Assembly: GCA_038045385.1 (NCBI GenBank)
Contig: JBBSYE010000006.1
Span: 2,668 to 66,667, forward strand
From: Nanobdellota archaeon
GTDB lineage: Archaea > Nanobdellota > Nanobdellia > Pacearchaeales > GW2011-AR1
Direction of reading: 5' to 3'
DNA: 64,000 nt
Position 1 is the first letter of the stretch. Each line of letters starts with the position of its first letter. The position numbers and the translations under genes were made by a program. This document shows, one piece after another, positions 5,658 through 33,871 of this stretch. The notes beneath the pieces are model-generated. The model was given only the letters and a program-made list of their open reading frames with translations. It was not told the DNA's origin and did not search any database.

Positions 5658-5728
5658 GGGCCCATGGTTTAATGGTAAAATACATGGCTGGCAGTCATGG
5701 GATCGGAGTTCGATTCTCCGTGGGTCCA
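5658..5728 (+). tRNA. tRNA-Ala(GGC)
   Basis: Acceptor GGGCCCA/TGGGTCC with G3:U70; anticodon arm CATGG-CTGGCAG-TCATG; T-loop TTCGATT; no encoded CCA. Confidence 0.93.
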
Positions 5729-5730
5729 CT
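5709..5730 (+). repeat. 22-bp direct repeat, copy 1 (tRNA-Ala 3' end)
   Basis: TTCGATTCTCCGTGGGTCCACT, identical to 6381-6402. Confidence 0.95.
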
Positions 5731-5911
5731 ATTGTCCACACATAAAAAGATGATTATTGCCAAAATCAGTACCAACTTCCTTCTTAATGTTTAAGCCTAT
5801 GAATATATTTTATGGTTTAAACCGAAATGCATCCACACAACCCCATAATTATGTTATTACTTTATAGTTAAAGATAGAAAGATTTAAATAGCTATAATTA
5901 ATAAAAAAGAT

Positions 5912-6274
5912 ATGACCCGACTAGCTAATTTAGAGGCATATTCTACATTTCAAAGAGGGCTCGATATAATCAGGAGGCAGTTCCCTACATTAAACTTTAT
6001 ACCTGATGAATCTACTAATCTTATTGATGCAACAAGCGGGATGCATAACGTACTCTATCGAGGTATAAATGAGGCCAAAAGAGTATACGAAATGATCGTG
6101 GCTTACTCATTGTGTGAAGGAAAACCACTTATTCACATTCGTGTTTATGAAAATGACCATAGGGATATAGTTCGCAGAATATTAGAAGAAGACTTGAGGA
6201 TAAAACCCTCTATTGGAGACCAGAGGCCCGCCTTTGATAAGATCGACATTGATGCACCTCTCAATGTATCATAA
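5912..6274 (+). CDS. hypothetical protein (islet cargo)
   Basis: 120-aa ORF with its own GAAAGATTTAAATA promoter-like sequence. Confidence 0.7.
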   Translation: MTRLANLEAYSTFQRGLDIIRRQFPTLNFIPDESTNLIDATSGMHNVLYRGINEAKRVYEMIVAYSLCEGKPLIHIRVYENDHRDIVRRILEEDLRIKPSIGDQRPAFDKIDIDAPLNVS

Positions 6275-6380
6275 CTAAATCGTTACAGAAATTAACCTCT
6301 TTGATTTGTTCGTTTAATCAAGTGCTAGAGTTTTGATTTCCTTTATTTTATAGAACGAAAAAGGTAGCGGAACTTTACTC

Positions 6381-6402
6381 TTCGATTCTCCGTGGGTCCA
6401 CT
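6381..6402 (+). repeat. 22-bp direct repeat, copy 2 (tRNA-Ala 3'-end fragment)
   Basis: Identical to 5709-5730; flanking bases differ on both sides. Confidence 0.95.
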
Positions 6403-17633: not shown

Positions 17634-18068
17634 TTGATAATGGAATCAACAAGTATTCAGTTAAAAAATTTAAGAATTCCCTTTGATGACACTTTAGCTT
17701 TCTTTCATAATCCTGAAGATGAACTATGCGGATATTTAGGCAGAGTCATAAGCAGAAAAGAAGAAGAATACGAATTAATTATAATTCCCGGAAAAACCAG
17801 AGGAACTTTCCATAAAGATCGTCTTGAATTTTACCACTTACAGGGAAGAGGCACAAATCTCTATGCCTCTTGCAGAGATGCTAGATGCGGAATGAAAGAT
17901 CTGGCTAAAAAATATTGCGCTCTGCATGAAAAAAAAATTATTGGCTTTTCATGGAGTAACGAAGGACTTTCCAGTTTAGTTAATTTATTTGACTCCCCGA
18001 TAACACCGAAGGAAGATAGAAATCAAAGAAGAAAGATGATACCGGCAAGAGAAAGAGCAATTCCATAA
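17634..18068 (+). CDS. hypothetical protein
   Basis: 144-aa ORF with own promoter-like sequence. Confidence 0.6.
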   Translation: MIMESTSIQLKNLRIPFDDTLAFFHNPEDELCGYLGRVISRKEEEYELIIIPGKTRGTFHKDRLEFYHLQGRGTNLYASCRDARCGMKDLAKKYCALHEKKIIGFSWSNEGLSSLVNLFDSPITPKEDRNQRRKMIPARERAIP

Positions 18069-18131
18069 ATTCCGTTAATAGCAAGACGACATCAGGCAAT
18101 AGCTTTTTAATCATAAAGCCCATATAGATGA

Positions 18132-19535
18132 ATGCAAAAAAGAGGACTGAATGCAATAATAACGACCGTTCTAATTTTGCTCATAGTAATCATAGCAATA
18201 ACTCTTCTTTGGACAATTCTAAGCCCTTCAATTTCAAATGCCTCAGAAGAAGTCGGAGCTACTGCAAGTTGCTTCTCTTTAGTTTTAGAGCCAAAGAGTT
18301 GCCGATATGATGCAGATTCCGAGTTAGTAAACGTCCGCGTAGAGCGTCGATCTGGAACATCAACAATCGAAGGATTAAATTTCATATTTTCAGATAATAC
18401 AAGAAAATCCGTAAATAGTTCAAACACAGCATCTCTAAATGAATTAGAATCAAAAACTTTTACCTTTGATTCATCAGAATTAGGAGGTATCACTTTTCCA
18501 CCAGCCTGGTTTACAATATCTGGAATAATTGATCCTAAAGTCCGCTCATGTGATGAAGTCCGTCCCCCGATAGCTTGTCTCCAGGCAATTTGTGGAGACG
18601 GCATAGTTGACTCTTTTCTAGGCGAAACTTGCGACGAAACAGAATGTTGCGACTCATGTAATAGAATAGCAACTTGCGACGGAATAGATAACAATGAAAA
18701 TAATCTAACTGACGAAGAGGGCGAAACTTTTCCCGCTAATTTCAGAGTGAGTATCTCCGAACCAATTGAAGGAAGACAATATGACACATCTACATCAACA
18801 TATAATAATTTGGCTCTAAGATTCTCGGTATTAAATATTTCAAATCCTCAACAAACCGCAATTGATTTGAAATCCTGTTGGTATAGATTGGACGGACAAA
18901 CAAATATTTTAGTACTTGGGTGTATGACTTTAGGAGGCGGAGCATCACAAGTTTATAGTTTAAATTTAACTCCCCTCAGCCCAGGAAGTCATATCGTCAC
19001 TGTTTTTGCAAATGATAGCTTAAATAGAGTTTCAAGTAGAACTGTTAGCTTCACAGTTGCTCAAGTTACATTAGCCCTTGCAAGTCCAGCAACTTATCCC
19101 CCAGAAATAATGCGCTCAACTGGCGTTGAAATTAGATTTTCTACAACTTTGCAAAATTTGAGTAGATGTTACTATACCTTAAATGGCGGACAAACAAACG
19201 TAACTATCCCTGCATGCCAACAAGGAGCAACATTTAGTGTTAGCGAGGGCTGGCACAATTTTATACTTTATATAAATAATACTTTATTTGAAGTTAGTAA
19301 TTCAGAAAGTTTCTTAGCAACGCCTTGTAGGGTTGATGCAAATGGCGACGGAGTACATAGCTTCTCAGATTTAAGCTCAGATTTACTAGGTAACTGGGGT
19401 TGTACAGGCACTCCTGGTGGAGAATGTGAAGCAATGATTAATAATTCAAATGTTCTCGCGGGAGATTTAAATAGAGATGGAGAAGTTGAAAATCTAGATG
19501 TAGAGATATATCGAAGATATGCTCCTTCATGCTAA
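18132..19535 (+). CDS. archaeal pilin/archaellin-like surface protein with a Cys-rich repeat, Ig-like domains and a C-terminal dockerin-like EF-hand pair
   Basis: Class III signal KRG-LNAIITTVLILLIV; CGDGIVD...ETCD; CDGIDNNENNLTDE; DANGDG...D and GDLNRDGEV..LD. Confidence 0.8.
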   Translation: MQKRGLNAIITTVLILLIVIIAITLLWTILSPSISNASEEVGATASCFSLVLEPKSCRYDADSELVNVRVERRSGTSTIEGLNFIFSDNTRKSVNSSNTASLNELESKTFTFDSSELGGITFPPAWFTISGIIDPKVRSCDEVRPPIACLQAICGDGIVDSFLGETCDETECCDSCNRIATCDGIDNNENNLTDEEGETFPANFRVSISEPIEGRQYDTSTSTYNNLALRFSVLNISNPQQTAIDLKSCWYRLDGQTNILVLGCMTLGGGASQVYSLNLTPLSPGSHIVTVFANDSLNRVSSRTVSFTVAQVTLALASPATYPPEIMRSTGVEIRFSTTLQNLSRCYYTLNGGQTNVTIPACQQGATFSVSEGWHNFILYINNTLFEVSNSESFLATPCRVDANGDGVHSFSDLSSDLLGNWGCTGTPGGECEAMINNSNVLAGDLNRDGEVENLDVEIYRRYAPSC

Positions 19536-19617
19536 TCTAGAAATAGAAAATCCTCAATAACATTTAAATACCCAAAACCCCAACGCTTGAAACCTATGAT
19601 GGTAACACGGAGGCCCA

Positions 19618-19953
19618 ATGGACTTCTATACACTGATTGATAAAGCAAAAAAAACCGGAAAAGTAGACAAAGGTAGCAACGAAGTTACAAAAGCAGCAGA
19701 GCGTGGAACTGCTAAACTAGTTGTTTATGCCGCAGATGTTAGCCCGAAAGAAATAGTTGCACATCTTTCAGCCATATGCGCAGAGAAAAATATTCCTTGT
19801 CATGAAGTTGATTCAAAACAAAAATTAGGTGCAGCAATAGGTCTTCCAGTCCCAACTTCTGCTGTAGCAATTATAGAAGCAGGCGACGCTGCAGATGAAC
19901 TTGCGCAGTTAAAGTCAGGAGCGAAACATGGCAAAGCAGCAAAGTCAGCGTGA
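19618..19953 (+). CDS. rpl7ae: 50S ribosomal protein L7Ae
   Basis: [30 protein letters not shown]. Confidence 0.93.
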
Positions 19954-20221
19954 TTCTAAATCTCAAGAAAATAGACCCCAAAGCAAATTTTCTAATGAAG
20001 GTCCAGTTCCTGCAATAGTTGAAGAAATTCTTGGAAGAACAGGCGCAAGAGGCGAAGTAACACAAGTCAAAGTAAAAGTTCTTGAAGGAAAAAATAGAGA
20101 AAGAACATTAAGAAGAAATGTCAAAGGCCCAGTGAGAATAAATGACTTATTAATTTTAAGAGAAACTGAAATTGAAGCACGTAAGATTCGTCGTAACATA
20201 ACAAAAGGAGCACAAAGCTAA
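19928..20221 (+). CDS. rps28e: 30S ribosomal protein S28e with an N-terminal extension
   Basis: [14 protein letters not shown]...[24 protein letters not shown]. Confidence 0.93.
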
Positions 20222-20568
20222 TGACACAAATAGGAACCGCAGAATCTCGTGCTCCAATCCAAAGAGATATTTCTTCTCTAATAGATTTATTCAGAGAAGT
20301 TAGCGGGAAATATCTAAGATTTACTGATGTGACCAATAATAGAGTGGGCAACAATATGAACTTTTTAATTATTAAAGACGAAGTTGTGGGCGATAGGCAT
20401 TTTCTAGAATTTTACGCTGAAGATATTTCTGGAGAAGACTATCAAGCACAAGCACAAATGAGAGATATAGACCGTCGCCACTCAGGTTATAACACAAAAG
20501 TTTATCATTCAGAAGAAAGAGGATTTACTTTTGTAGAAGTTTTTAAAGGACAAGGAGTTAACATCTAA
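20221..20568 (+). CDS. hypothetical protein inserted between rps28e and rpl24e
   Basis: TAATG-coupled at both ends. Confidence 0.7.
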   Translation: MTQIGTAESRAPIQRDISSLIDLFREVSGKYLRFTDVTNNRVGNNMNFLIIKDEVVGDRHFLEFYAEDISGEDYQAQAQMRDIDRRHSGYNTKVYHSEERGFTFVEVFKGQGVNI

Positions 20569-20801
20569 TGGCCAAATGCATTTTCTGCGGTTGCGAACAA
20601 GCAGATTTTAAAGGAACATTTTTATTGAAGAATGATGGAACTATCGCCTATTACTGCTCCGATAAATGCAGAAAGAATCATCTTAAGCTAGGCAGAGATA
20701 AAACGAGATTAAAATGGACTGAAGCTTATAGAATTGCAAAAACAAAACGCACTAACGCAGGTTCATTAAACAAAGCTCTAAAGCCAAGAAGAAAGAAATA
20801 A
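20568..20801 (+). CDS. rpl24e: 50S ribosomal protein L24e
   Basis: CIFCG...YYCSDKCRKN...KWT. Confidence 0.93.
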   Translation: MAKCIFCGCEQADFKGTFLLKNDGTIAYYCSDKCRKNHLKLGRDKTRLKWTEAYRIAKTKRTNAGSLNKALKPRRKK

Positions 20802-20876
20802 TTCTATTTTATCGTCGGTAAATCAAGTTTTTTGATGTAAAGGTTTTTAAAGTCAATCCCCTTTTAGCATTAGAAT

Positions 20877-22763
20877 ATGGTTGAAAAAGAATACAAAGCT
20901 GAAAATATCAAGGTTCTTGAAGGGCTTGAAGGCGTTAGAATGCGTCCTGCGATGTATATCGGAAGCACAGGCAAAGCAGGTTTACATCATCTAGTCTATG
21001 AGGTAGTAGACAACTCCGTCGATGAAGCTATGGGGGGTCATTGCGATTTGATCGTTGTCAGTTTAAATAAAGATGGTAGCGTAACAGTAACAGATAACGG
21101 TCGAGGAATTCCAGTAGAGATGCACCCAGTCTACAAAGTTCCAGCACTAGAAGTTGTAGTCACAAAATTACACGCCGGCGGTAAATTTGACAAGGGAAGC
21201 TATGCAATTTCTGGAGGTTTACATGGCGTAGGTATCAGCGTCGTTGCAGCACTTTCAAAATTAATGAAAGTCGTCGTAAAAAAAGGCGGTCAGAAATATA
21301 TGCAAGAATACGAAATCGGAAAGCCAATTTACAAGATGAAAACTCTCGGAGAGATAGATAAAAAGGAAACCGGAACAGAAGTTACATTCTTCCCTGATGA
21401 TGAGATATTTTCAACAACAAAATTTGATTTTTCAGTTTTAGAAACTCGCTTTCGTGAGATGGCCTTTCTAAATAAAGGTTTAAAAATAATTTTAAAAGAT
21501 GTGGTTTCAGAAAAGCAAGAGACATTCCATTACGAAGGCGGAATAATTGAATTCGTAAAATGGGTAAATGAAACAAAAGAGCCACTTCATAAACCAATTT
21601 ATTTTATTAAAGAGGAAAAACCATTCATCATAGAATGCGCAGTTCAATACAATAATGGATATCAAGAAAATATCTTAAGTTTCGTTAACACAATCAATAC
21701 AATAGAGGGCGGAACTCATGTAGCTGGCTTTAGAACGGCACTAACAAAAGCAATTAATGACTATGCAAAAAAGAACAAACTAACTAAAGACGACAGCCTA
21801 ACGGGAGATGACGTTCGCGAGGGTTTAACAGTTATTCTTTCGGCTAAAATCCCAGAGCCTCAATTTGAAGGTCAGACAAAAACAAAGCTTGGAAATACGG
21901 ATGTTAAAGGAGTGGTTGAACGCGTTGTAGGCTCAGCACTAACTGAATTTTTCGAAGAAAATCCGCCCATAGCTCGTCGAGTAGTAGCAAAAGCAATAGA
22001 AGCACAAAAAGCAAGAGAAGCCGCAAAGAAAGCCAAAGATTTAGTCAGAAGAAAAAACGCTTTCAGCGTCGGAGGTTTACCCGGAAAACTAGCAGACTGT
22101 TCAAGAAAAAGTTCAGAAGATACAGAGCTTTACATAGTTGAAGGCGATTCGGCCGGAGGTTCGGCAAAACAAGCACGTAACAAAGAATTCCAAGCAATAC
22201 TTCCGCTTAAAGGTAAAATTTTAAACGTTGAAAAAGCAAACGTAGCTAAAGTTTTCTCCAGCGAAGAAATTGCAAATCTCATAACTGCAATAGGCACAGG
22301 AGTAGGCGAGCAGTTTACATTGGAAAAATTACGTTACAGTAAAATAATCATAATGACTGATGCAGATGTAGATGGCGCGCACATCCGCACTCTTCTTTTA
22401 ACCTTCTTCTATCGTTTTATGAAACCAATAATTGAAAACGGCAATTTATACATAGCAGTCTCTCCTCTCTTCAAAGTCCGCAAGCGTAAAGATTACTATG
22501 TTTATTCCGAAGAAGAGCTAAAGAAACTCATCGCAACAATGGGTGACAATACAACCATTCAGCGTTTCAAAGGTCTAGGAGAAATGAACCCAGAACAATT
22601 ATGGGAAACTACTATGGATCCAAAGAATCGCCTTCTAAACAAAGTTCTAGTAGAAGATGCAGTCAAAGCAGACCACGTCTTCTCTATTTTAATGGGGTCA
22701 GATGTAGAACCAAGAAAGAATTTTATTATTGCAAAAGCAGCGGAGGCTAATGTTGATATCTAA
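20877..22763 (+). CDS. gyrB: DNA gyrase subunit B
   Basis: VRMRPAMYIG, GGLHGVG, EGDSAGG, PLKGKILN, DADVDG, QRFKGLGEM. Confidence 0.95.
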   Translation: MVEKEYKAENIKVLEGLEGVRMRPAMYIGSTGKAGLHHLVYEVVDNSVDEAMGGHCDLIVVSLNKDGSVTVTDNGRGIPVEMHPVYKVPALEVVVTKLHAGGKFDKGSYAISGGLHGVGISVVAALSKLMKVVVKKGGQKYMQEYEIGKPIYKMKTLGEIDKKETGTEVTFFPDDEIFSTTKFDFSVLETRFREMAFLNKGLKIILKDVVSEKQETFHYEGGIIEFVKWVNETKEPLHKPIYFIKEEKPFIIECAVQYNNGYQENILSFVNTINTIEGGTHVAGFRTALTKAINDYAKKNKLTKDDSLTGDDVREGLTVILSAKIPEPQFEGQTKTKLGNTDVKGVVERVVGSALTEFFEENPPIARRVVAKAIEAQKAREAAKKAKDLVRRKNAFSVGGLPGKLADCSRKSSEDTELYIVEGDSAGGSAKQARNKEFQAILPLKGKILNVEKANVAKVFSSEEIANLITAIGTGVGEQFTLEKLRYSKIIIMTDADVDGAHIRTLLLTFFYRFMKPIIENGNLYIAVSPLFKVRKRKDYYVYSEEELKKLIATMGDNTTIQRFKGLGEMNPEQLWETTMDPKNRLLNKVLVEDAVKADHVFSILMGSDVEPRKNFIIAKAAEANVDI

Positions 22764-22963
22764 TGGTTAAAGAAAAGACAATACACGAAGCAAGAGAGAA
22801 AAAAACCAGTAGTCAAATGACTAATCGTATTCAGAGATCTGACAGAAACCCTTACGATTTAACTAACGCCCCCAGAGGCATGAACCCGATTGACCCATGC
22901 GATAATCTCTATGATTTAACTCATGTAGCTGAGCAAAGGAGAAGGCAATATAATGGCAGATAA
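22763..22963 (+). CDS. 66-aa hypothetical protein between gyrB and gyrA
   Basis: TAATG-coupled to gyrB, overlaps the gyrA start; internal NxYDLT repeat. Confidence 0.6.
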
Positions 22964-25457
22964 AGAAGACAAAATAGACGAACAGCTTGAAGCTATGGAA
23001 AAAGAGCGCCGTGCGAAAACTCAAATCGGAGATGAGAAAGGCGTTGCAGGCGCAGAAATAGTTGAAGAAATGGAGCAATCATTTATTGACTATGCAATGT
23101 CAGTTATAGTTGATAGAGCCTTGCCCGCAGTTGAAGACGGCTTAAAGCCCGTTCATCGTCGCATATTATGGACAATGCATTCTCTCGGACTAGACCCAAG
23201 TAAACCTACAGTAAAGTCCGCTCGTATCGTTGGAGACACAATGGGTAAGTTTCATCCTCATGGAAATCTCGCTATCTATGATTCTCTAGTTCGCATGGCT
23301 CAAGATTTCTCTTTACGTTATCCGTTAGTTCACGGTCAAGGAAATTTCGGCAGTCGCGATGGGGACAACGCCGCAGCAGATCGTTATACGGAAGCAAAAT
23401 TAAGCAAAATATCCGGCGAGTTATTAGCAGACATTGACAAAGATACAGTAATCATGAATCCAAACTATGACAATTCTCTAAAAGAACCGGCAACACTTCC
23501 AGGACTTCTTCCTAACTTATTAATTAACGGAGCTACGGGTATTGCAGTCGGTATGGCTACAAACATGCCACCCCATAATTTAACTGAAGTTTGCGATGCA
23601 ATTATCGCTTATATAAACAAACCAGAAATTACAATAGACTCATTAATGGAAATAGTAACAGGCCCAGACTTTCCGACAGGTGGCTCAGCAAGCGGTGAAG
23701 GCATTAAAGAAATGTATCGCGTAGGTAAAGGACGTATAGTAATGCGCGGTAAAAGCACAACAGAAGAGCACAAAGGTAGAACATCAATAATAATCACAGA
23801 AATACCTTATATGGTAAATAAAGCCGACCTTGTCAAAGAAATAGCAAGACTAGCCACAGAAAAAAAATTACCAGACGTTTCTGATTTAAGGGATGAATCA
23901 TCAAAAGGAAAAGTTAGAATAGTTATAGAGCTAAAGAAAGATACAACACCAAAATTCACACTAAATAAAATTTACACATTAACAAGACTACAAGATACCT
24001 TCGACGCAAACATGCTTGCTCTTGTTGAAGGCAAGCCCCGCATACTAAATCTCAAGGAAATAATAGAGCAATATGTCCGCTATCGTAATCAAGTAGTTCG
24101 TAACAGAAGCAAATTTGATTTAAAGAAAGCTGAAGATAGACTTGAACTAGTTTTAGGTTTACTAATTGCATTAAAGAAAATAGATGAAATCGTTGAATTC
24201 ATTAAGAAATCTGAAAATGCAACCCTGGCTCACGAAGGGCTAATGAAAAGATTTGGACTAACAACTAGACAAGCAAAAGCAGTTCTTGAAATTCGCTTAC
24301 AACAGCTTACAAAACTTGAAGACTCCAAGTTAAAAGAAGAAGAAAAACAGTTGAAAGAAGCAATTGGAGAATTAAAGAAAATATTATCAAGCAATCAAGA
24401 AATACTTTCAGTCATTAAGCGCGAAGTGATTGAGTTAAAAAAGAAACATGGGGATGAAAGGCGTACAGATATTCTTAAGCGTATTGCCGAGCTATCAGAA
24501 AAAGACTTGATTGAAAAGAAAGATGTAGTCGTCATGTTAACAGAAGGGGGTTACATAAAAAGAGTTGATATTGCAACTTATCGCGAGCAACGCCGTGGCG
24601 GGGCCGGAGTCACAGGCGCAGATCTAAAAGAAGAAGATTTCGTCCGCACAATGGTTCCATGTTCAACTCACGATTATCTTTTATTATTCACAACTCGCGG
24701 TCGCGTCTATTGGCTAAAAGCAAATGACGTTCCATCCGCAGATCGCCAAGGAAGAGGAAAGGCAATAATCAATCTTCTAGATTTACGAGAAGAAAAAATA
24801 GCCCAAGTAATGCCTCTAAAAGATTTTGAAAATGGTTATTTAATGTTTGCAACCAAATTAGGAATGATTAAGAAATTGCCTGTGAAAGATTTAGCAAAGC
24901 CACGCAATACAGGAGTTAGAATAATGAACTTACCAGCAGACGGCACAGATTCAATAATTAATATAGTCAGAGTTACAGACAAACAAGAAGTCTTAATGTG
25001 CACAAGCAAAGGACAAGCAATAAGATTCAACACAGACGAAGTCCGTCCTATGGGAAGAGCTAGCTATGGAGTGAAAGGCGCAGAGCTAAGCAAAAGTGAT
25101 GAAGTCGTATCCATGGAAGACTTACCTCTAGACGGCAAAACAACAATCTTAACAATCTCACAAAAAGGATTAGGTAAACGTTCAGATCTTGAAGAATATA
25201 GAAAAACATCAAGAGGCGCAAAAGGCGTTATTAATCTGGCTGTGAGCGATAAGACTGGCCCAGTAGTCTCCTCTTTATCAGTAGACAATTCAGATTCTAT
25301 AATAATAACAACAACAAAAGGAATGATAGTCCGTGTTAATATGAAAGACATGAGAGTAATGGGCAGAGCGACGCAAGGCGTTCACGTCGTTCGTCTAAAA
25401 GAAGGCGATAAAGTTGCAGATGTAGTTAAAGTCCCAATTGCAGAAAAAGTTGAGTAA
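22953..25457 (+). CDS. gyrA: DNA gyrase subunit A
   Basis: [16 protein letters not shown] catalytic motif; GyrA-box QRRGGAG; beta-pinwheel repeats. Confidence 0.95.
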
Positions 25458-25491
25458 AAAGGTTTTTAAATAATAAAAAATATAAATCAAT

Positions 25492-25875
25492 ATGAAAGGC
25501 AAGTTAGGCTACACAATAACAAGAATAATATTAGGGTTAGCATTTCTATTTTTCGGCGTAACAAAATTCTTGACCTTACCAGCTCCAGAGCTACCGGGCC
25601 CAGCAGCAGATTTCCTAGCAGCTATGGCCTCAACTGGTTATATGATTCCACTGATTGGAATCGCCGAAGTCGTCATTGGTTTATTACTTCTAGTAAATAT
25701 AGCAGTTCCATTCTCAATGATTCTATTATCTGCAATAATGATTAATGTAATCCTATTCAACATATTCCTAGCCCCAAGTCTGTTCGTAATGATAATGCTT
25801 CTAGTCCTAGTAGCCTTACAAGTCTACATAATGTATTGCACTTGGAATGCATACAAGCCATTATTCAGAAGATAA
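25492..25875 (+). CDS. DoxX-family membrane protein
   Basis: RIILGLAFLFFG..KFL; four TMs. Confidence 0.75.
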   Translation: MKGKLGYTITRIILGLAFLFFGVTKFLTLPAPELPGPAADFLAAMASTGYMIPLIGIAEVVIGLLLLVNIAVPFSMILLSAIMINVILFNIFLAPSLFVMIMLLVLVALQVYIMYCTWNAYKPLFRR

Positions 25876-25918
25876 ATAATATCTATATCTTTTTAAAACT
25901 CCATAGTTAAGCAAAATT

Positions 25919-26410
25919 ATGGAAATTCCTCAAACTCTAATTACTTTACTGACGGGACTTTTAGGAGTCCTATTTGGCTCTTCATTTACTTCTTATTTTA
26001 ACCTTCGTTCAGCAAGAAAAGACCTTCTGTTCAAAAAGAAACTCGAGCATTTTGAACGTCTCTCAAAAGATTTAGAAGAGAATTTCAGACTTCACAAAAG
26101 CGCAATTCTCTCTTTATCAACAATGAAAAAAAGCCAAGTTAGCGAAACACTTGAAAATTTAAAAACTTCTAGGAAGCATTTCCTAATGTCCTCAAGTCCC
26201 TTATATCTAAATATTGAAAGAATGTCATGGGTAATAACAAACTTCGTTGAGGTAGAAAAAAGCATTTTCAGCTTTCTAGAACAACTAGCTAAATCAAAAA
26301 CGCCTTCTTCAAAAGAAAGAATTCTATTCAATCTTCAAGAAGCAATAGAAAAATTAAAGTTCGCCCAACAATCTGCAATTCTGGAAATGCGCAGAGAATT
26401 GTATCAGTAA
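25919..26410 (+). CDS. hypothetical protein with an N-terminal TM
   Basis: 163-aa ORF, helical. Confidence 0.65.
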   Translation: MEIPQTLITLLTGLLGVLFGSSFTSYFNLRSARKDLLFKKKLEHFERLSKDLEENFRLHKSAILSLSTMKKSQVSETLENLKTSRKHFLMSSSPLYLNIERMSWVITNFVEVEKSIFSFLEQLAKSKTPSSKERILFNLQEAIEKLKFAQQSAILEMRRELYQ

Positions 26411-26432
26411 TATACACAACCCCTCAAAAGCT

Positions 26433-27095
26433 CTACTTCTTACCTTTAACTTGTTTGTTGAATAACTTCCAGAGCTTATCGATAATAGATTTAGGAACAG
26501 AGATAATTTTTCGATTAATCAGCTTCTCAAGATTTTCTCCCAAGCCCATGATAGCATGTTCATTTCCTAGAAGAACTTGTTCATTAGCCTCTTCTAATAT
26601 AACATCCCAATTCAACTTATTATCGTTTATGATAGCAATTATATCTTCATTATCTTTAGTTCTTCCTGTAACACTTTTCATAATTAAGATATCATTTGTA
26701 GTAGCTACTTTAATAACTAAATTACTTCCGAATTCGTGAGTTTGTGTTGCTCTTTTCTTCATCCCATCAGAAAAGACAGAGCTTACTATTTTATTAAGAA
26801 ATAAATCAAATATGAAATCGCCAGACTCAAGACGTAACATTGCAGGAGTATTCTTCTTTAACCCATATGTTTCTATAACTCGTTTATCATCTTTTTTAAA
26901 CTTCATTCCTTCTAATGTCTCAATGAATAAATTCCTGTCGCTTTCCTTATCAAAAACTAAATCAATATCAAATGTTTCGTTCTTTAGACCTAACAACATC
27001 ATTGCAGTTCCACCTATAGAATAAACAATGAGTTTTTTAGGAAGGGCACGACCTATTTCGTTAAAAAGAGCTTCCTGAGTGTTTATATTTATCAT
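26433..27095 (-). CDS. nucleotidyltransferase (AbiEii/DUF6036-like), putative type IV TA toxin
   Basis: IGGTAM...TFDIDL; ILIMKSVTGRTKDNEDI. Confidence 0.75.
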   Translation of the reverse strand: MININTQEALFNEIGRALPKKLIVYSIGGTAMMLLGLKNETFDIDLVFDKESDRNLFIETLEGMKFKKDDKRVIETYGLKKNTPAMLRLESGDFIFDLFLNKIVSSVFSDGMKKRATQTHEFGSNLVIKVATTNDILIMKSVTGRTKDNEDIIAIINDNKLNWDVILEEANEQVLLGNEHAIMGLGENLEKLINRKIISVPKSIIDKLWKLFNKQVKGKK

Positions 27096-27742
27096 TTAAG
27101 TATCGTATACTCCCGTAAATCTGCACGATTTAATGGGATATAAACTTTCAACTTTTTCTCTATATCTTTAAAATCATCCGAACTAAATCCATTTACAATA
27201 AAAAGATGCTTGTCACCTTTCTTAGCAGTAGTTAATCCTCCAAATCTCTTTGGCATTTTTCTTATTTTTCTTATGAAAATACGAGCTACTTCGTACAAAG
27301 CAGATATTTGCCTTGTAAGATTCTCTTTCTTTGCTAATCGATACAAGTAAGACCAGTCCTCTATTTTTCTAAAAAGAAATAGAGAAGAGATAACATATCT
27401 AATTTTTCCCTTCTTTAGTGCATAAATCAGCAAGTCTTCAGCTTTGATACTCTTTCCATGAACAAAATAATTATCTTCATCATTTATCTTAAATGCAGAA
27501 TTAGGCATATTATCATTAAAGGCCTCTAAATAACTGATTCCATCCTGCTTATTTAACGGAGTTATAGAGTAAATTCTCTTTTTATTGGGAAGATATATTG
27601 TCCTGATATATCCTAATTTTCTTAATCTATGTAAGAGATAAATTGCTTTAGCTCTGTCTATCTTAAGCTTATCTTGAACGTCATCAATTGTTTGAGTGCC
27701 TTCTATTGCGTTAATTATTGGCTTATATTTTTCACTTATCAT
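27092..27742 (-). CDS. winged-HTH protein, putative AbiEi-like antitoxin/regulator
   Basis: N-terminal HTH (KAIYLLHRLRKLGYI); ATGA-type overlap with the nucleotidyltransferase. Confidence 0.65.
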   Translation of the reverse strand: MISEKYKPIINAIEGTQTIDDVQDKLKIDRAKAIYLLHRLRKLGYIRTIYLPNKKRIYSITPLNKQDGISYLEAFNDNMPNSAFKINDEDNYFVHGKSIKAEDLLIYALKKGKIRYVISSLFLFRKIEDWSYLYRLAKKENLTRQISALYEVARIFIRKIRKMPKRFGGLTTAKKGDKHLFIVNGFSSDDFKDIEKKLKVYIPLNRADLREYTILK

Positions 27743-27897
27743 ATCAAATCTATATAACCATAATATATAAACCTTTCTACTATTTGGATAACTATTAAAT
27801 GTATGACCAATAATATATAAATAAAGTCAGATATTTGCCCCTTTATTGACAATTATGATACTAAATAGAGCATTCTCAATTAAATAGTCAAAGTCAA

Positions 27898-28650
27898 TCA
27901 GAAATTAATTTCGAGACTTACTGGACAATGATCTGAACCTAACACATCTTTCAATATTAAACTATTGAGCATTTTATCCTTTAGAGACTTGCTTACAACA
28001 AAGTAATCAATACGCCAACCTATATTTCTTTGTCTTAAATTATTCATATATGGCCACCAAGAATAATGCCCAGATTCTTTAGTAAATTCTCTAAATGAAT
28101 CTATAAATCTCTCTTTTAAAAAACCATCAAACCAACCCCTTTCCTCTTTTGTAAAACCAGCATTCCCATCATTATTTTTTGGATGTGCGAGGTCAATTTC
28201 TGTATGTGCTACATTGAAATCAGATGCAATTATTACCGGTTTAATCCTCTCCAATTCGTTACAAAACTCAATGAATTTCCCATTAAATTTAAGCTTAAAA
28301 TCAAGTCTTTTCAATTCTCTATGAGAATGTGGGAAATAGGCATTAATCAGAAAAAAATCGTTAAATTCCAATGCAAGCACTCTTCCTTCTTTATCAAATA
28401 CTTCTTCTCCAATACCTTCCTTAACTGATATCGGCTTTATTTTTGAAAAAACAGATACTCCACTATACCCTTTCTTCTCAGCATGTGCATGAAATTCATG
28501 ATAACCATTCAACAATTTAGGAATTTTTTCTTTTGTTGCCTTAACTTCTTGGAAACAATATATTTCAGCATTCTCATTATCCATAAAGTCAATTAATCCT
28601 TTATTTACGCAAGCATTGATTCCGTTAACGTTCCAAGATATTATTTTCAT
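27898..28650 (-). CDS. xth: exodeoxyribonuclease III / AP endonuclease
   Basis: MKIISWNVNG (start reassigned to 28650), QEVKA, DFNVAH, GWRIDY, SDHCP. Confidence 0.93.
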   Translation of the reverse strand: MKIISWNVNGINACVNKGLIDFMDNENAEIYCFQEVKATKEKIPKLLNGYHEFHAHAEKKGYSGVSVFSKIKPISVKEGIGEEVFDKEGRVLALEFNDFFLINAYFPHSHRELKRLDFKLKFNGKFIEFCNELERIKPVIIASDFNVAHTEIDLAHPKNNDGNAGFTKEERGWFDGFLKERFIDSFREFTKESGHYSWWPYMNNLRQRNIGWRIDYFVVSKSLKDKMLNSLILKDVLGSDHCPVSLEINF

Positions 28651-28748
28651 CAATCTATGAGATATGGGCAAATTAAAGACTTTTCCATATAACGCACGGA
28701 CCAAAACACGATTGAAGTTGCTATAGTTAGGTACAATGCAAGTTTAAA

Positions 28749-29924
28749 TCAAATGCTTTTTTCAAGCATTTCTATTAAATTTAGAACATCAGTGAAAAAT
28801 ATCTTGCACCCCTTAAATTCCTTAGTCTTATCTTCTCCTTTATAAGAGACTACAAACGCTTTTTTTGGTTTGTAAACTTCGATAAAAGATTGAAGACTTC
28901 TTTCTATTTTATCAGAAGAATTTATTTTTACTTCAATTGGAATTAATTTTTTATCTTTTTCGATAACGAAATCTACTTCTGCTTTTGATTTTGTTCTCCA
29001 ATGGTTAAGTGCAAATCCCGCTTTAATTAATTCGGAAGCAACATAATTTTCAAATAATTTACCGTCTAGTTCGCTATCGAAATTCTTGGTAATCAGATTT
29101 CTTAATCCCGTGTCTACAAAATAAATCTTAGGTTGTTTAGTAATCTCTTTAATTTTGTTTCTGTAAAATGGTGCAATTTTTAAAATAAGATAACTTTTCT
29201 CCATGGCGTCAAGGTATTTTTTTACAGTTTGAAAAGACAGTTTCAGATTATTTGATACTTCTTCATAAGAAATCAAATTACCAATATTTAGGGCTAGATA
29301 CTTGCTAAATTCCTCTAAAGAACCTATGTTTTCTATAGAAAAAGTGTTTGCAATGTCTTTTAGAATCATGGTTGTATTAAGGTCTCGTAATATTGTCTTT
29401 TTTAGTTCAATATCTTCCGTTATAACGACTTTGGGATATCCTCCGTACGTAATGTGCTCCCATATGTTTCTTTGGAGCATCTGCTTTGCGAATTCCTTTT
29501 GATTTTTAGCTTTCAAAAACTCATTAAGAGAAAGAGGATATAATTTTAGAACCGAAACTCTTCCCACAAGAAATGAAAGTACCTCTTTACCTAAAATTAA
29601 CTCGGATGATGAAGTAATCCACATTTTCTTGCCTTTATCTGCAAGATATTTCAAGTTTCTTCCAGCTTCTTTGCAATATTGGACTTCATCTAAAACATAG
29701 ACTTCTGAATTTTCAAGGTATTGCCTCTCAAACTTTTTTATGTCTTGTTCAAAAAGATTTCTAATATCGGGGTCATCAAACGAAAGGTAAGATGATTTTA
29801 ATCCTTTGGCATGTTCTTTAAGAAAGGTCGTCTTTCCAGCTTGCCTTGCACCAACTAGCGCAATCACAGAATATGCATCTGCAATTTTTCGAAAGTTCTT
29901 GTTTATTTCACGTTCTATATACAT
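28749..29924 (-). CDS. AAA+ superfamily ATPase (AAA_14 plus DUF4143 type)
   Basis: GARQAGKTT, VLDEVQ, GGYP, KIYFVDTG, EVDFV...PIEVK. Confidence 0.88.
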   Translation of the reverse strand: MYIEREINKNFRKIADAYSVIALVGARQAGKTTFLKEHAKGLKSSYLSFDDPDIRNLFEQDIKKFERQYLENSEVYVLDEVQYCKEAGRNLKYLADKGKKMWITSSSELILGKEVLSFLVGRVSVLKLYPLSLNEFLKAKNQKEFAKQMLQRNIWEHITYGGYPKVVITEDIELKKTILRDLNTTMILKDIANTFSIENIGSLEEFSKYLALNIGNLISYEEVSNNLKLSFQTVKKYLDAMEKSYLILKIAPFYRNKIKEITKQPKIYFVDTGLRNLITKNFDSELDGKLFENYVASELIKAGFALNHWRTKSKAEVDFVIEKDKKLIPIEVKINSSDKIERSLQSFIEVYKPKKAFVVSYKGEDKTKEFKGCKIFFTDVLNLIEMLEKSI

Positions 29925-30020
29925 GTTTATCAGAATGACGAGAAGTATTTAAATCTTACTAATATTTAACTACAGGTAAGTTTTAGTATTACTATAGTTA
30001 ATCTACAAGTATATTTTAGT

Positions 30021-30551
30021 TTATTTCTTGCGTTTGTTCGCTTCATCCAGTATCTTGAAATAGTCGTCTCCGACTTTTTCTACAAGATCATTAAGTTCGT
30101 CAAGAACATTCTGAATTTCTTCTTCTGAAGGTCCTTCAAGTTCCATAAATTTTAGTTTGGTAGGTTTCGTCAATTCTACAAATGCAATCTCAACCTTACT
30201 CAGTTGCCAATATTCGCGTTCAGAATGATTTTCAAGAAGCGTATAAAACTTCATATGGTTAAACATCTGTGCTACGGCCTCAGGATTATCGACTTTGCTT
30301 GTTAATTCGATACGTTTCCAGATATCGCTTTCTGTTTCGCGCTTACCTTTGAAAGTCAATTCTGCAGCTCCGCCCTTAACACGTAGGCGTACAAAGTCCT
30401 TTGCGTTCTTCATATCAGTATCTTCGAGGCTAAAATAGGTATCTGCTAAGGTGTATTTTTCTTTAAAGGTCGCCCCTAATTTTTTTAGCTGGGCAATCAC
30501 TTTATTTTTGTCCGTGAATGAAAGTTTGATCTCTATTTCGTGCTGGCTCAT
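30021..30551 (-). CDS. CYTH-domain protein (class IV adenylate cyclase-like)
   Basis: EIEIK, DTYF, VRLR, LTFKG, FMELE. Confidence 0.85.
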   Translation of the reverse strand: MSQHEIEIKLSFTDKNKVIAQLKKLGATFKEKYTLADTYFSLEDTDMKNAKDFVRLRVKGGAAELTFKGKRETESDIWKRIELTSKVDNPEAVAQMFNHMKFYTLLENHSEREYWQLSKVEIAFVELTKPTKLKFMELEGPSEEEIQNVLDELNDLVEKVGDDYFKILDEANKRKK

Positions 30552-30595
30552 ATTACTTAGGTACTCCTACAAGCTTCAATTTGAGATTGAACTTA

Positions 30596-31141
30596 TTAAA
30601 TACTGGTTCGCATATATTGTATTGCTTCCTCAAGATTCCTTACTCCATTTAATCTTAAAACTTCTTCAAGTTGCCTTAGGTAAGAAGAATGGTTTCCATA
30701 AATAGGCGACCAAGGCTTACATCCAGAAGAGCCTAAAGAAATCACTACTTCTCTTGCAATATACTCGGCGAAACCCTCACTCATAAATTCAGGAAGTTTA
30801 GCAATACCTTCTGGATCTTCAATAGATTTGCCTATTAATCTACTATGGGCTATATGGCCCAATTCATGTGCCGCCAACCATAGCATATGTTTATTGCTTG
30901 GAAGCGCTAAATGGAGTGCCGGATTTCTACTATAAAATACTCTAGTATCCGCGGCTTTGGCAGTTAATGCAAAAGAAAATTCAAGAAAAGAGAGATATGG
31001 AACCCTTTCCGAAGATAATAATGTATAATATTCTGAAAGAGGTTCGACTTTTATTTTTCCAAGTTTCACATTCATTCTCTCTTCAATGATTGGCTTTGCT
31101 CGCGTAATCGCTTCGGAAAGTCTTTTCTTAATAGTTATCAC
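30596..31141 (-). CDS. HExxH zinc metallopeptidase-like protein
   Basis: AAHELGHIAH...SEGFAEY. Confidence 0.7.
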   Translation of the reverse strand: MITIKKRLSEAITRAKPIIEERMNVKLGKIKVEPLSEYYTLLSSERVPYLSFLEFSFALTAKAADTRVFYSRNPALHLALPSNKHMLWLAAHELGHIAHSRLIGKSIEDPEGIAKLPEFMSEGFAEYIAREVVISLGSSGCKPWSPIYGNHSSYLRQLEEVLRLNGVRNLEEAIQYMRTSI

Positions 31142-31205
31142 AAGAAAACCTATAAGAAAGGTATTTAACTTTTACTACGTGTTTTACAGTTATAGAAGGG
31201 TATTA

Positions 31206-31260
31206 CGCCCGGACCAAGAATCGAACTTGGATATCCTTGCGGAAATCGGTTTACTTGTTT
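31206..31260 (-). other. orphan tRNA-Ser 3' exon (46 nt, 31206..31251) preceded by an intron/BHB remnant
   Basis: AAACAAG-TA|A-ACCGA-TTTCCGCAAGGATA-TCCAAG-TTCGATT-CTTGG-TCCGGGC-G; no matching 5' exon seen in the window. Confidence 0.85.
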
Positions 31261-31869
31261 TTATCGCATTTTACTCTCAACAAGTGAATATGCTTTCCGA
31301 AATCTTTTATATTGACGTTTTTTAATTGCTGGCGGTAGAGCTTCCGGAAGGTAAACGTGCATCATAAAATCCCGAATAGTCTCTAGTTTTCCTCGATTAG
31401 GTAGATTATGGATTATAGGAACTTCTTCGTTAGTCACGTCAATAATATTAATAATACCCAAGGGGTAAATTGCAGGAATTAAATCTGGTAGTCTGTAAGC
31501 TGCAGGATTGCAGCAAGAAATAATTAGTCCAGAAGAAGTTAAACGTTGTTGCATTAAGAAAGGAACGATATCGCTACCCTCATCCCCTGGGCTATCAAAA
31601 TAAAGCCATTTGTCCGCACTAGAATGGCCGTGACATTTTATAAATCTCAGCGGTTTTATAATGCTAGAAGACTCTAGTAAATTGGCGACTTGAGCTGGAA
31701 GCCTTTCAGCGTATTTATTTACAGCGTGACTATAATCCAACCTCATTTGAAGTGCGACATCTTCTTCCGTTTCAAGAGTTGTATCAATCGCTTTTTTTTC
31801 TAACAAACGCTGTTCCGAAATTAGAAATTCTCCAAACCAGGGGCCAACACGACAAGGAAAATTATGCAT
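31261..31869 (-). CDS. hypothetical protein, possible caspase/CHAT-like cysteine peptidase
   Basis: RFIKCHGH and GLIISCCNP; stop codon abuts the orphan tRNA half. Confidence 0.6.
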   Translation of the reverse strand: MHNFPCRVGPWFGEFLISEQRLLEKKAIDTTLETEEDVALQMRLDYSHAVNKYAERLPAQVANLLESSSIIKPLRFIKCHGHSSADKWLYFDSPGDEGSDIVPFLMQQRLTSSGLIISCCNPAAYRLPDLIPAIYPLGIINIIDVTNEEVPIIHNLPNRGKLETIRDFMMHVYLPEALPPAIKKRQYKRFRKAYSLVESKMR

Positions 31870-31919
31870 CTTTAGATTATCTAAATAAGACTTTTATATC
31901 TTTGGACAATTATTGAAGA

Positions 31920-32078
31920 CGCCCGGACTCGGAATCGAACCGAGATATCCTCACGGAAATCGCATGTCTTGTTTTCTTTCCCACATTTAAGGAAGAAAGA
32001 CCCTTTCTTCTTTCCCAGGGGTTTCTTCCTAAGAAAGGCCTTTTCGAGTGCGACGCAATTCCATTATGCGATCCGGGC
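31920..32078 (-). tRNA. tRNA-Ser(CGA) with a 77-nt intron at 37/38 (31966..32042)
   Basis: GCCCGGA/TCCGGGC acceptor, G73; TCGCA/TGCGA anticodon stem; long variable arm; mature length 82 nt. Confidence 0.9.
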
Positions 32079-32102: not shown

Positions 32103-32444
32103 TTAATGTCTTTTGCTTATAACCTTCTTTACAGGTTTATTTCCATGAACATAATAATATACAATAGCCCCAATTACGTTTAAGAAAATTATTACTAAAA
32201 TCCACATGACTTTTTGATAGTCTTTATCAAATTTTCTAAAAGAGCAATCCACAATCATATAAATCATAAAAGCAAGACCAAGTATCGTCACAAGAAAATG
32301 CGAAATAATCACAAGTCCGAAAGATGAGAAATCAATCTCTTTTCCTTTAGCTATAGAAAACATAAAACTAAAAAATAAGAAAGTATGTATTAAGAGCCAA
32401 GCAATATAAACAGGGACTAAGTATCTAAATATTTTTTTAACCAC
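32103..32444 (-). CDS. small membrane protein with a PLDc_N-like hairpin
   Basis: MIVDC...KVMWILVIIFLNVIGAIVYY. Confidence 0.75.
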   Translation of the reverse strand: MVKKIFRYLVPVYIAWLLIHTFLFFSFMFSIAKGKEIDFSSFGLVIISHFLVTILGLAFMIYMIVDCSFRKFDKDYQKVMWILVIIFLNVIGAIVYYYVHGNKPVKKVISKRH

Positions 32445-32896: not shown

Positions 32897-33871
32897 ATGG
32901 AATCAAACAAAGAACCGCGAAAAGATTTAATCTCTTATTTAGTAACTTCTTCTGTTAAATTGGACGGCTTTGAGAATGGCACGAGAATTGACGAAAGAAT
33001 AGGGCTTGAAAATCGTATAACTCATACTTATGAAGAGTTCCCACAGAAAGACAGACCTAATTTTTCGCCATTATTTTGTTCAATAGAAATTACTCCAGAA
33101 AGAAAGAACGTAAAGGCGCTTACACATTTTAGAGTTGGTCTCAACGGAGAAACTTATTCTCTTTATGAGAATCTAATAAATGCAACTAACTTAATAGCGG
33201 GCACAGAGATAACCCCTTCAAGAACAATGTTATTCAAAGATTTTACCGCTCAAACAAAGTATGAAGGAAATAGAGATGGAACAAGAACGGAAGTTCAATT
33301 TTTAAAGCCCAATATAGAAAAAGATGCAAGACGGAGTATAGAAATGAGGGGGCTTATTGGGGGAACAACAATAGGCGCAGTTTTCGGGTTGCTTGGCGGA
33401 ATAGCCCTTGCTCCATACCTAAATGATCCTATAAGCCCAAGTCACCCTATTTTTGAATATTATACATTGGCTACTTTTGAGGGTGTTATAGGGCTAATAA
33501 CAGGTTTAACAGTTTTCGGACATGCCGGAGAGATAATATCGGGCCAAATTTCTCCACTTTTCTTGAATGGAGCTAAAGAAAGGGTAAAAAGAGATAGATT
33601 AAGAGAGACTACAGCCCCAAATAGAAGAATAAGCAATTTCAAGAGACAACTTAATACTCTAAGCCAGTTAGAAACAGAATCAGTTACGGAAGAAGAGTGG
33701 ACACAATTTAGAGAACAGGAAGAAAAGACAAAGAAAGCTTACGATTATCTACATGCCGTTCACGAGGATATAATCAGATGCGAAGGAATCGCGTTAACTG
33801 TTTATGGTTCGGATAGAGATGAAGTGTTTAATCGTGTAAGATCGATCTATCGTTCTATTGAGCAAATTTAG
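32897..33871 (+). CDS. hypothetical protein with two central TMs
   Basis: Gly-rich hydrophobic segments followed by a coiled C-terminus. Confidence 0.7.
   Translation: MESNKEPRKDLISYLVTSSVKLDGFENGTRIDERIGLENRITHTYEEFPQKDRPNFSPLFCSIEITPERKNVKALTHFRVGLNGETYSLYENLINATNLIAGTEITPSRTMLFKDFTAQTKYEGNRDGTRTEVQFLKPNIEKDARRSIEMRGLIGGTTIGAVFGLLGGIALAPYLNDPISPSHPIFEYYTLATFEGVIGLITGLTVFGHAGEIISGQISPLFLNGAKERVKRDRLRETTAPNRRISNFKRQLNTLSQLETESVTEEEWTQFREQEEKTKKAYDYLHAVHEDIIRCEGIALTVYGSDRDEVFNRVRSIYRSIEQI

Follow-up and report, generated by a model that had tools for sequence, protein, structure and literature searches.

A lone tRNA-Ser 3′ half found downstream of the intron-bearing tRNA-Ser(CGA) gene of a DPANN archaeon (Nanoarchaeota) is probably, with a chance that we put at roughly three in four, an att-type recombination scar, that is, a partial duplicate of the 3′ part of tRNA-Ser(CGA) left by the integration of a small DNA. 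The locus lies in a 64,000-nt stretch of DNA, analysed as a whole and referred to here as the window, from a genome assembly of 783 kb in 8 contigs with a GC content of 35 % and an estimated completeness of 89 %. The two copies of the tRNA 3′ part form a direct repeat on the same strand, the orphan being situated downstream of the intact copy with the 3′ ends 714 nt apart. The initial annotation had offered three readings of the orphan half, namely the 3′ half of a trans-spliced tRNA-Ser(UGA), an att remnant from a different serine isoacceptor, or a tandem tRNA gene whose 5′ half had been replaced by the intervening gene. The first of these is not supported by the present analysis. Of the second, the att-type remnant is favoured, but its source appears to be another Ser(CGA) allele or lineage and not necessarily another isoacceptor, while the third is possible but less parsimonious than an att scar.

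The features of the locus are collected in Table 1. The resident gene was detected solely by ARAGORN in intron mode, being missed by default ARAGORN and by Rfam, and neither the gene nor the orphan half was matched by Rfam at gathering or E-value thresholds, a failure of the tRNA model that is due to the intron in the one and the truncation in the other. The 8-mer AAAACAAG and its 2-nt spacing to A38 are alike in the orphan and in the resident intron tail, and the last base of the ORF202 stop codon is the first A of the intron-tail remnant. The 7-bp hairpin located 5′ of the orphan (ACUUGUU/AACAAGU) places a CUUG opposite the CAAG of the tail, as predicted by RNAfold, and the CTTG..GAG that it contains, 19 nt ahead of the tail, could be left over from the anticodon loop of a donor gene. 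Within the orphan exon, CCAAGUUCGAUUCUUGG would mark any mature tRNA containing the orphan half.

Table 1. Coordinates of the tRNA-Ser(CGA) locus and of two further tRNA-bounded islets of the same genome
Feature	Position	Strand	Description	Source
Resident tRNA-Ser(CGA)	31920-32078	minus	Intron-bearing	ARAGORN intron mode
Resident 5′ exon	32043-32078	minus	36 nt; acceptor GCCCGGA, anticodon stem TCGCA, loop CUCGAA	ARAGORN with introns, sequence
Resident intron	31966-32042	minus	77 nt, position 37/38, tail AAAACAAG-AC; holds a 34-nt insert flanked by the 9-nt direct repeat GGGAAAGAA (31974-31982, 32008-32016)	
Resident 3′ exon	31920-31965	minus	46 nt; ATGCGA, GTGA-loop variable arm, T stem CTCGG/CCGAG, acceptor strand TCCGGGC plus G	Sequence
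Islet between tRNA copies	31262-31919	minus	658 nt; 49-nt spacer, then ORF202	
TATA-like box GATATAAAAG	31891-31900	minus	Promoter-like; in the 49-nt spacer, ~26 nt before the ATG	
ORF202	31261-31869	minus	202 aa; sole gene of the islet	
Hairpin	31253-31285	minus	ACTTGTT (31279-31285)/AACAAGT (31253-31259), across the ORF202 stop codon	RNAfold
Intron-tail remnant	31252-31261	minus	AAAACAAG (31254-31261) plus TA, ahead of the orphan exon	
Orphan tRNA-Ser 3′ exon	31206-31251	minus	46 nt; AACCGA, GCAA-loop variable arm, T stem CCAAG/CTTGG, TCCGGGC plus G	Sequence
Common block CGATTTCCG	31240-31248 and 31954-31962	minus	Candidate crossover site	56-nt alignment
Common block AGGATATC			Other candidate crossover block, directly 3′ of the variable-arm loop in both copies	56-nt alignment
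tRNA-Ala(GGC) islet	Repeats 5709-5729, 6381-6401		21-nt exact repeats; one 120-aa ORFan	
tRNA-Val(GAC) islet	Contig C4		31-nt exact repeat; PIN toxin and small partner ORF	

The orphan and resident segments are identical at 44 of 56 positions (79 %). The presence of a second serine 3′ exon with the same intron tail, as initially described, was confirmed on the sequence and on Logan contigs from SRR32696712 (28261-34869) and SRR32696708 (28261-31951), which are 100 % identical to the assembly where they cover the locus and by which an assembly artefact is ruled out. The 56-nt alignment also bears out that all three T-stem differences between the copies are compensatory and that both variable-arm loops (GTGA in the resident, GCAA in the orphan) are of the GNRA type. 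The reported misfit of the orphan anticodon-stem strand ACCGA to the local 5′ exon likewise stands, as three of its five positions pair with TCGCA. The description of the orphan as not being a decayed copy holds as an observation but not as a sign of present function, because the covariation would have arisen while the halves sat in separate working genes. The absence of any decay in the orphan indicates either that the event was recent or that some constraint persists; continued constraint is compatible with the sequence and would count against a scar.

The ancestry of the two 3′ halves was traced by comparison with related genomes. Between the orphan and the Ser(CGA) 3′ exon of a genome of the same genus, G008 (labelled a Nanoarchaeota MAG, JBBSYO01), 44/46 positions agree, AACCGA included, the two differences constituting one compensatory T-stem pair. 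The corresponding BLAST alignment (96 % over 50 nt, E = 1.3e-16) shows a similarity far above chance, and G008 was the sole match when the genome contigs were scanned for the orphan pattern. All Ser(UGA) genes of the genus have a TTCG variable arm and a CCCGG T stem, while the orphan shows GCAA and CCNNG, as do the Ser(CGA) genes of the genus, and on these features it is assigned to the CGA type within the genus.

The resident 3′ exon shows a different affinity, agreeing with the Ser(CGA) gene of G002 at 41/46 positions, with an identical T arm and acceptor end, and with those of G001, G003 and G004 at only 37-38/46. The resident 5′ exon, in contrast, is nearest to G001, G003 and G004 (34/36 to the Ser(CGA) gene of G001), so that relative to these three genomes it differs at 2/36 positions and the resident 3′ exon at 8-9/46; the probability of at least 8 differences in 46 nt at the 5′-exon rate is 0.004. 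A chimera composed of the resident anticodon strand and the orphan variable arm, T arm and acceptor would differ from the same three genomes at 4-5 positions, and BLAST aligns their 3′ exons with the orphan and not with the resident exon. The combination of variable arm, T arm and acceptor found in the resident gene is unique among 400 genomes of the order (up to 3 mismatches allowed), and in a comparison by segments the switch between native-like and foreign-like sequence falls in the CGATTTCCG region. The two 3′ halves thus most likely stem from two different working tRNA-Ser(CGA) alleles or lineages. Both parents being functional tRNA sequences, the covariation is explained without present function.

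Synteny with G007 and G004 extends through the genes and the promoter block AAAAGACATTAAAAGC upstream of the tRNA, and the locus is therefore native up to the start of the tRNA. A foreign origin of the whole resident gene was rejected on account of this native promoter and upstream flank, and that of the whole resident 3′ exon because its anticodon strand covaries with the native 5′ exon (T27/A43). In each of the other eight genus members, the Ser(CGA) locus that was compared contains one Ser(CGA) gene and no orphan half. The exact empty junction is not reconstructable, the DNA downstream of the orphan being non-syntenic with any relative; ungapped comparison of the downstream flanks gave 15/26 identities between the orphan and G001 (shuffle p = 0.004) and 15/26 between the resident copy and G007, the local alignments not being significant. 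The last 8 nt of the 5′ exon and the first 35 nt of the intron are identical to G001 (43/43), and this shared intron was found in no other of 400 family genomes. G003 has exons as in G001 and no intron, the tRNA-Asn intron is not conserved across the genus, and proteins at the compared loci are roughly 33-87 % identical, mostly about 50-70 %. The 43/43 identity with G001, set against the intronless G003, points to a recent gain, loss or transfer of the intron.

The cargo gene has few relatives. ORF202 was absent from 60 related genomes, and a word-based search of 5.8 billion proteins returned ORF202 itself alone, while HMMER identified two real relatives (46 % and 35 % identity) among 1.84 billion representatives; these lie beside TctA and among the genes for EF-2, S7 and S12, in ordinary chromosomal surroundings that are never tRNA-adjacent. 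Its absence from the 60 relatives and its having only two distant homologues mark the inter-repeat DNA as strain-specific or foreign. The GC content of the islet and ORF202 is 0.371, compared with 0.354 for the genome. ORF202 has no match in Pfam or PHROG, and its profile returned only noise against PDB sequences. Two groups of its residues, H80-G81 and C120-N121-P122, are invariant and would be in keeping with a Cys-His hydrolase, and AlphaFold2, run on the protein alone and with its two relatives, produced poor models (pLDDT 44-50).

In the proposed course of events, foreign DNA, of which 658 nt with the promoter-like box and ORF202 now remain, would have recombined into the tRNA gene. The incoming molecule would have carried a tRNA-Ser-like attachment segment, extending from the intron tail to the 3′ end and derived from another Ser(NGA) gene, and the crossover would have taken place within a short common block, either CGATTTCCG or AGGATATC. 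The rebuilt working gene would consist of the host 5′ exon, intron and anticodon-stem strand joined to a foreign distal part, and the reciprocal product, foreign in its proximal and host-derived in its distal part, would be the orphan now found 714 nt downstream, presumably a non-essential duplicate. The unoccupied site would accordingly have combined the left part of the resident copy with the right part of the orphan, for example ...ATGCGATTTCCG[TG/CA]AGGATATCCAAG... We infer the mechanism, the position of the crossover, the parent of each segment and the non-use of the orphan from the sequence comparisons described above. The copies would differ by compensatory pairs and not by decay because each half had previously evolved in a working tRNA. 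The repeats are not near-identical (79 %), as att repeats typically are; this counts against an att origin but would be explained here by an attachment segment originating from a different tRNA-Ser allele.

Against an att-type origin also stand the lack of a reconstructable empty site, the ordinary chromosomal setting of the ORF202 relatives and the lack of any integrase in or beside the islet; the sole tyrosine recombinase of the assembly (PF00589) is encoded by a single gene at C3:73660-74130, which we take to be of the housekeeping XerA type. A further point against it is that an exact-pattern scan of viral contigs detected neither the orphan exon nor the resident T arm nor one reconstructed attP (that of a CGATTTCCG crossover). 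In SRR32696708, the locus is distributed over two contigs with exactly 30 nt in common, AGGATATCTCGGTTCGATTCCGAGTCCGGG, with the break at the AGGATATC boundary. A 30-nt overlap is characteristic of branching in a k=31 graph, and the branch implies a second molecule in this sample that shares the same 30-mer and differs at 31952 (just 5′ of AGGATATC) or at 31921. This second molecule could represent a second context of the islet end.

A split gene would be expected where a serine tRNA is otherwise missing. The host carries intact tRNA-Ser genes for GCU (contig C1), CGA and GGA (contig C6) and UGA (C8:81639-81720), with regular stems throughout, and as archaea usually carry genes for these four isoacceptors, all of which are intact here, a split serine gene is unnecessary. 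The initial annotation had found no Ser(UGA) 5′ exon in the window, and a genome-wide pattern search likewise returned no 5′ half for the orphan in the 89 %-complete assembly, some 11 % of the genome being unseen; every GCCCGGA was examined, and patterns with a UCGGU or UUGGU stem (G-U tolerant) and a CUNGA loop were sought with at most two acceptor mismatches. The intact Ser(UGA) gene, for which a search had been proposed, together with the absent 5′ half, leaves unsupported the reading of the orphan as the 3′ half of a trans-spliced tRNA-Ser(UGA).

The assignment of the orphan to a Ser(UGA) partner had been drawn from its CAAG tail, an argument that is structurally sound but does not identify a UGA half. 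In the intron-bearing Ser genes of the family, the intron ends in CAAG-NN where the anticodon is UGA and in CGAG-NN where it is CGA (one case), a pattern that fits pairing between loop nucleotides 32-35 and the intron tail. However, the CAAG tail of the resident Ser(CGA) gene pairs with its own loop 32-35 (CUCG) with a C34-A mismatch, as read from the sequence, and the Ser(CGA) gene of G001 has an identical tail, the same mismatch being tolerated. Since the tail occurs in working Ser(CGA) genes, it is no pointer to a UGA partner.

It is extremely improbable that the orphan functions as the 3′ half of a split tRNA-Ser or as an alternative 3′ exon for the resident 5′ exon, even though its T arm, variable arm and acceptor strand are perfect and its CAAG-NN-A38 spacing is correct. 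The orphan acceptor strand also matches the resident 5′ exon, with which it pairs in a co-fold, related Nanoarchaeota have intron-bearing Ser(UGA) genes combining a CAAG tail with an ACCGA stem, and the unseen part of the genome could harbour a partner. Nevertheless, as read from the sequence, an orphan joined to the resident 5′ exon would have mismatches at C30-C40 and A31-A39 beside the splice bulge, so that neither a proper bulge-helix-bulge motif nor an anticodon stem would form. A metagenomic intron-bearing Ser(UGA) with the CAAG tail and ACCGA stem was rejected as a partner, its acceptor stem being different. The CUUG/CAAG hairpin was also rejected as a bulge-helix-bulge motif, as it has neither flanking bulges nor an upstream helix partner for ACCGA, and the leader of the orphan, which in a split gene would contribute to such a motif, is the coding 3′ end of ORF202. 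With all four isoacceptors encoded by intact genes, the orphan is not the only source of its tRNA, and the pattern searches of the 89 %-complete assembly yielded no separate 5′ half with which it could be paired.

Two other origins of a non-functional orphan were weighed against integration at an att-type site. The locus may once have held a tandem pair of tRNA-Ser(CGA) genes, the second of which lost its 5′ half through the insertion of ORF202 or a deletion, leaving the orphan as a truncated pseudogene. This history would account for the agreement of the entire orphan, AACCGA included, with one natural allele (G008, 44/46), for the presence of an intron tail, as in a full gene, and for the possible anticodon-loop relic within the upstream hairpin, but it is unlikely, as no D-arm or 5′ acceptor-strand trace is discernible upstream of the orphan, and in the eight other genus genomes (8/8) no further Ser(CGA) copy or fragment lies close to Ser(CGA), so that a host-specific duplication or acquisition would be needed anyway. 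Moreover, the two other islets of the genome show plain 3′-end repeats, as att sites would. It is more unlikely still that the orphan forms the boundary of a larger block, relocated or transferred, which lies below 31206 and was joined through tRNA-Ser recombination, with ORF202 being incidental. The region 18000-31200 is indeed non-syntenic with the Ser(CGA) neighbourhoods of the eight genus relatives, the genes found after Ser(CGA) in G001, G003 and G004 are located here on another contig (C1:93.9-94.4 kb), and the neighbouring downstream gene, ORF181, is missing from the genus. Documented cases exist of inversion between full and partial tRNA copies (PMC9897764), and the assembly graph of SRR32696708 has its branch within the resident 3′ exon, the 9.7-kb contig on the right being unbroken. 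On the other hand, the downstream region contains core genes (gyrB, gyrA, exonuclease III) of ordinary composition, and a full gene plus one ORFan ahead of the orphan would be left unexplained. Even as the end of such a block, the orphan would still be a recombination scar, which makes this a variant of the main reading.

The probable att-type scar is not the only structure of its kind in this genome, in which two further integrase-less islets of 0.65-0.8 kb are bounded by direct repeats of tRNA 3′ ends (Table 1); short tRNA-Ser 3′-end repeats are also present in other genera of the family. Relatives of the PIN toxin of the tRNA-Val islet were found in four other genomes, where they are not tRNA-adjacent, and the notion of conserved mobile cassettes is consequently unsupported. 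As the toxin relatives are not linked to tRNAs, the islets are more readily regarded as stripped remnants of larger elements or as sporadic events than as small cassettes inserted in trans. That a 0.78-Mb genome harbours three such islets, each integrase-less and with one or two genes, suggests that tRNA 3′ ends are one of the main routes by which new genes reach these reduced genomes.

A more far-reaching proposal, that the locus represents either a nascent split or alternative-exon tRNA or, in a milder version, the docking of single-gene cassettes at DPANN tRNA 3′ ends by a recombinase acting in trans, is very unlikely. In its stronger form, the inserted gene may have parted an intact, intron-tailed 3′ half from a working 5′ exon, and the half may be co-transcribed with the ORF202 mRNA and joined in cis (through an ‘intron’ of ~0.8 kb) or in trans, giving rise to a second serine isodecoder. 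In its milder form, this cassette would still be mobile, and the branch in the SRR32696708 assembly graph hints in that direction.

The recognition of the orphan as a probable scar has several consequences. Finding a tRNA half of perfect structure in a relative of Nanoarchaeum is not in itself evidence for a split tRNA gene, and a false positive is removed. Compensatory differences between tRNA copies can stem from the recombination of functional alleles and are not necessarily due to selection acting on the copy. In addition, the locus is a likely example of integration inside an intron-bearing tRNA gene, with a repeat starting in the intron tail, and is relevant to two proposals, the protection of tRNA genes from integration by their introns and the scattering of tRNA fragments through integration (PMC3293823).

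The generation of partial tRNA copies by integrating elements is well documented in archaea (PMC9897764; PMC3293823). Such copies flank, for example, PYG1 at the tRNA-Gln gene of Pyrococcus yayanosii and proviruses of Thermococcus, these elements being 9-23 kb in length, encoding an integrase and having near-identical repeats of about 44 bp (PMC9897764). In these elements, as here, a partial copy can resemble a tRNA gene fragment, although the present islet comprises 0.66 kb with one gene and no integrase, and its 79 % identical repeats show compensatory differences and start in the intron tail. At the tRNA-Thr(GGU) locus of Caldiarchaeum subterraneum, a fragment lies near an intron-bearing full gene with a short insert between them (Sugahara et al. 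2012, PMC3293823), and the integration of an element was proposed to replace part of a tRNA gene and to scatter the old part (PMC3293823). The Caldiarchaeum fragment is, however, a 5′ fragment located upstream, and the accompanying insert of 1.8 kb carries a recombinase gene and occurs repeatedly in the genome (PMC3293823), whereas here a 3′ fragment lies downstream and the insert is single-copy and lacks a recombinase.

Split tRNA genes are established in Nanoarchaeum equitans, Caldivirga maquilingensis and Staphylothermus (PMC3218864). The present locus shares with them a lone tRNA 3′ half, in a DPANN archaeon, with an intron-like tail before nucleotide 38, but in the known cases a 5′ half that fits, equipped with a complementary trailer, is encoded as well, and no other gene supplies the tRNA in question, whereas here the assembly contains no partner and the isoacceptor set is complete. 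Split tRNA genes were reportedly described by Randau and colleagues in 2005. CIME-like elements are integrase-less islets at tRNA att sites that are either cis-mobilizable or decayed. The islet described here resembles them in having att-like repeats around a small cargo without a recombinase and in occurring alongside others in one genome; it differs in that the relatives of its cargo are not tRNA-linked and that mobilization in trans is only putative. Among these systems, the locus is most likely a small, integrase-less case of the known archaeal tRNA-integration scars, distinguished by its diverged repeats.

The intron of the resident tRNA-Ser(CGA) gene, which lies upstream of the orphan tRNA-Ser 3' exon, was found only in this genome and in the same-genus genome G001, and not elsewhere among 400 genomes of the family. 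The two loci (L073 in G001) are identical at 43 of 43 positions, comprising the final 8 nt of the 5' exon and the first 35 nt of the intron. In G003, another genome of the genus, the Ser(CGA) exons are the same as in G001 and the intron is missing. Relative to G001, the intron carries an insert with the 9-nt direct repeat GGGAAAGAA at both ends, which looks like a small duplication or insertion. The tRNA-Asn intron showed no conservation within the genus.

In the assembly of run SRR32696708 the locus is broken into two contigs (L088 and L091) that share exactly 30 nt (window 31922-31951), all within the 3' exon of the resident gene. Such an overlap marks a branch in the assembly graph, so a second sequence context is present in that sample. 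The genome's Ser(UGA) gene has the acceptor stem GCCGACG/CGTCGGC; that of the fetched genus relatives (G004, G005, G006 and G008) is GCCCGGA/TCCGGGC. This gene may also have been replaced.

Against the otherwise syntenic neighbourhoods of G007 and G004, the PLDc_N gene and the 324-aa ORF are insertions found only in this genome. The PLDc_N ORF terminates in ..SKRH*, and this terminus plus the tRNA promoter block is a repeat of the terminal part of a 100-aa ORF in G007 (..AKRH*). The 181-aa ORF has no Pfam or PHROG match and no homologue among the eight other genomes of the genus. ORF202 belongs to a family in which H80-G81 and C120-N121-P122, each behind a hydrophobic stretch, are invariant, which suggests a candidate Cys-His hydrolase.

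Features of the tRNA loci and their surroundings (C, contig; G092, G156 and G229, genomes from other genera of the family)
Feature	Location	Strand	Remarks
tRNA-Ala(GGC) islet	window 5658-6401	+	exact 21-nt direct repeat of tRNA 3' end (5709-5729, 6381-6401)
181-aa ORF	window 30596-31141	-	immediately downstream of orphan; HELGH (HExxH) motif
ORF202	window 31261-31869	-	family of 3 members in public data
5'-exon end and Ser(CGA) intron	window 31966-32050	-	compared with G001 locus L073
Intron insert versus G001	window 31974-32016	-	34 nt
PLDc_N gene	window 32103-32444
324-aa ORF	window 32897-33871
tRNA-Val(GAC) islet	C4:3995-4872		outside window; 31-nt exact repeat of tRNA 3' end
Ser(UGA) gene	C8:81639-81720
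tRNA-Ser 3'-end repeat L036	G092:C32
tRNA-Ser 3'-end repeat L041	G156:C72
tRNA-Ser 3'-end repeat L045	G229:C6

Repeated tRNA 3' ends also occur at other loci. Outside this genus, the family has tRNA-Ser genes whose own 3' end recurs 110-210 nt downstream as short direct repeats of about 12-30 nt; the spacer at L036 is dense with hairpins. The 3' end of tRNA-Ala(GGC) recurs 672 nt downstream, and the islet so bounded lacks an integrase and holds a single 120-aa ORF, whose sole match in a search of 5.8 billion proteins was itself. The copy of the tRNA-Val(GAC) 3' end sits 803 nt downstream, and the islet has a GC content of 0.296 versus 0.354 for the genome. Its cargo is a VapBC-like pair, in which a PIN-domain toxin (PF01850, E = 1e-11) is accompanied by a small RHH-like ORF.
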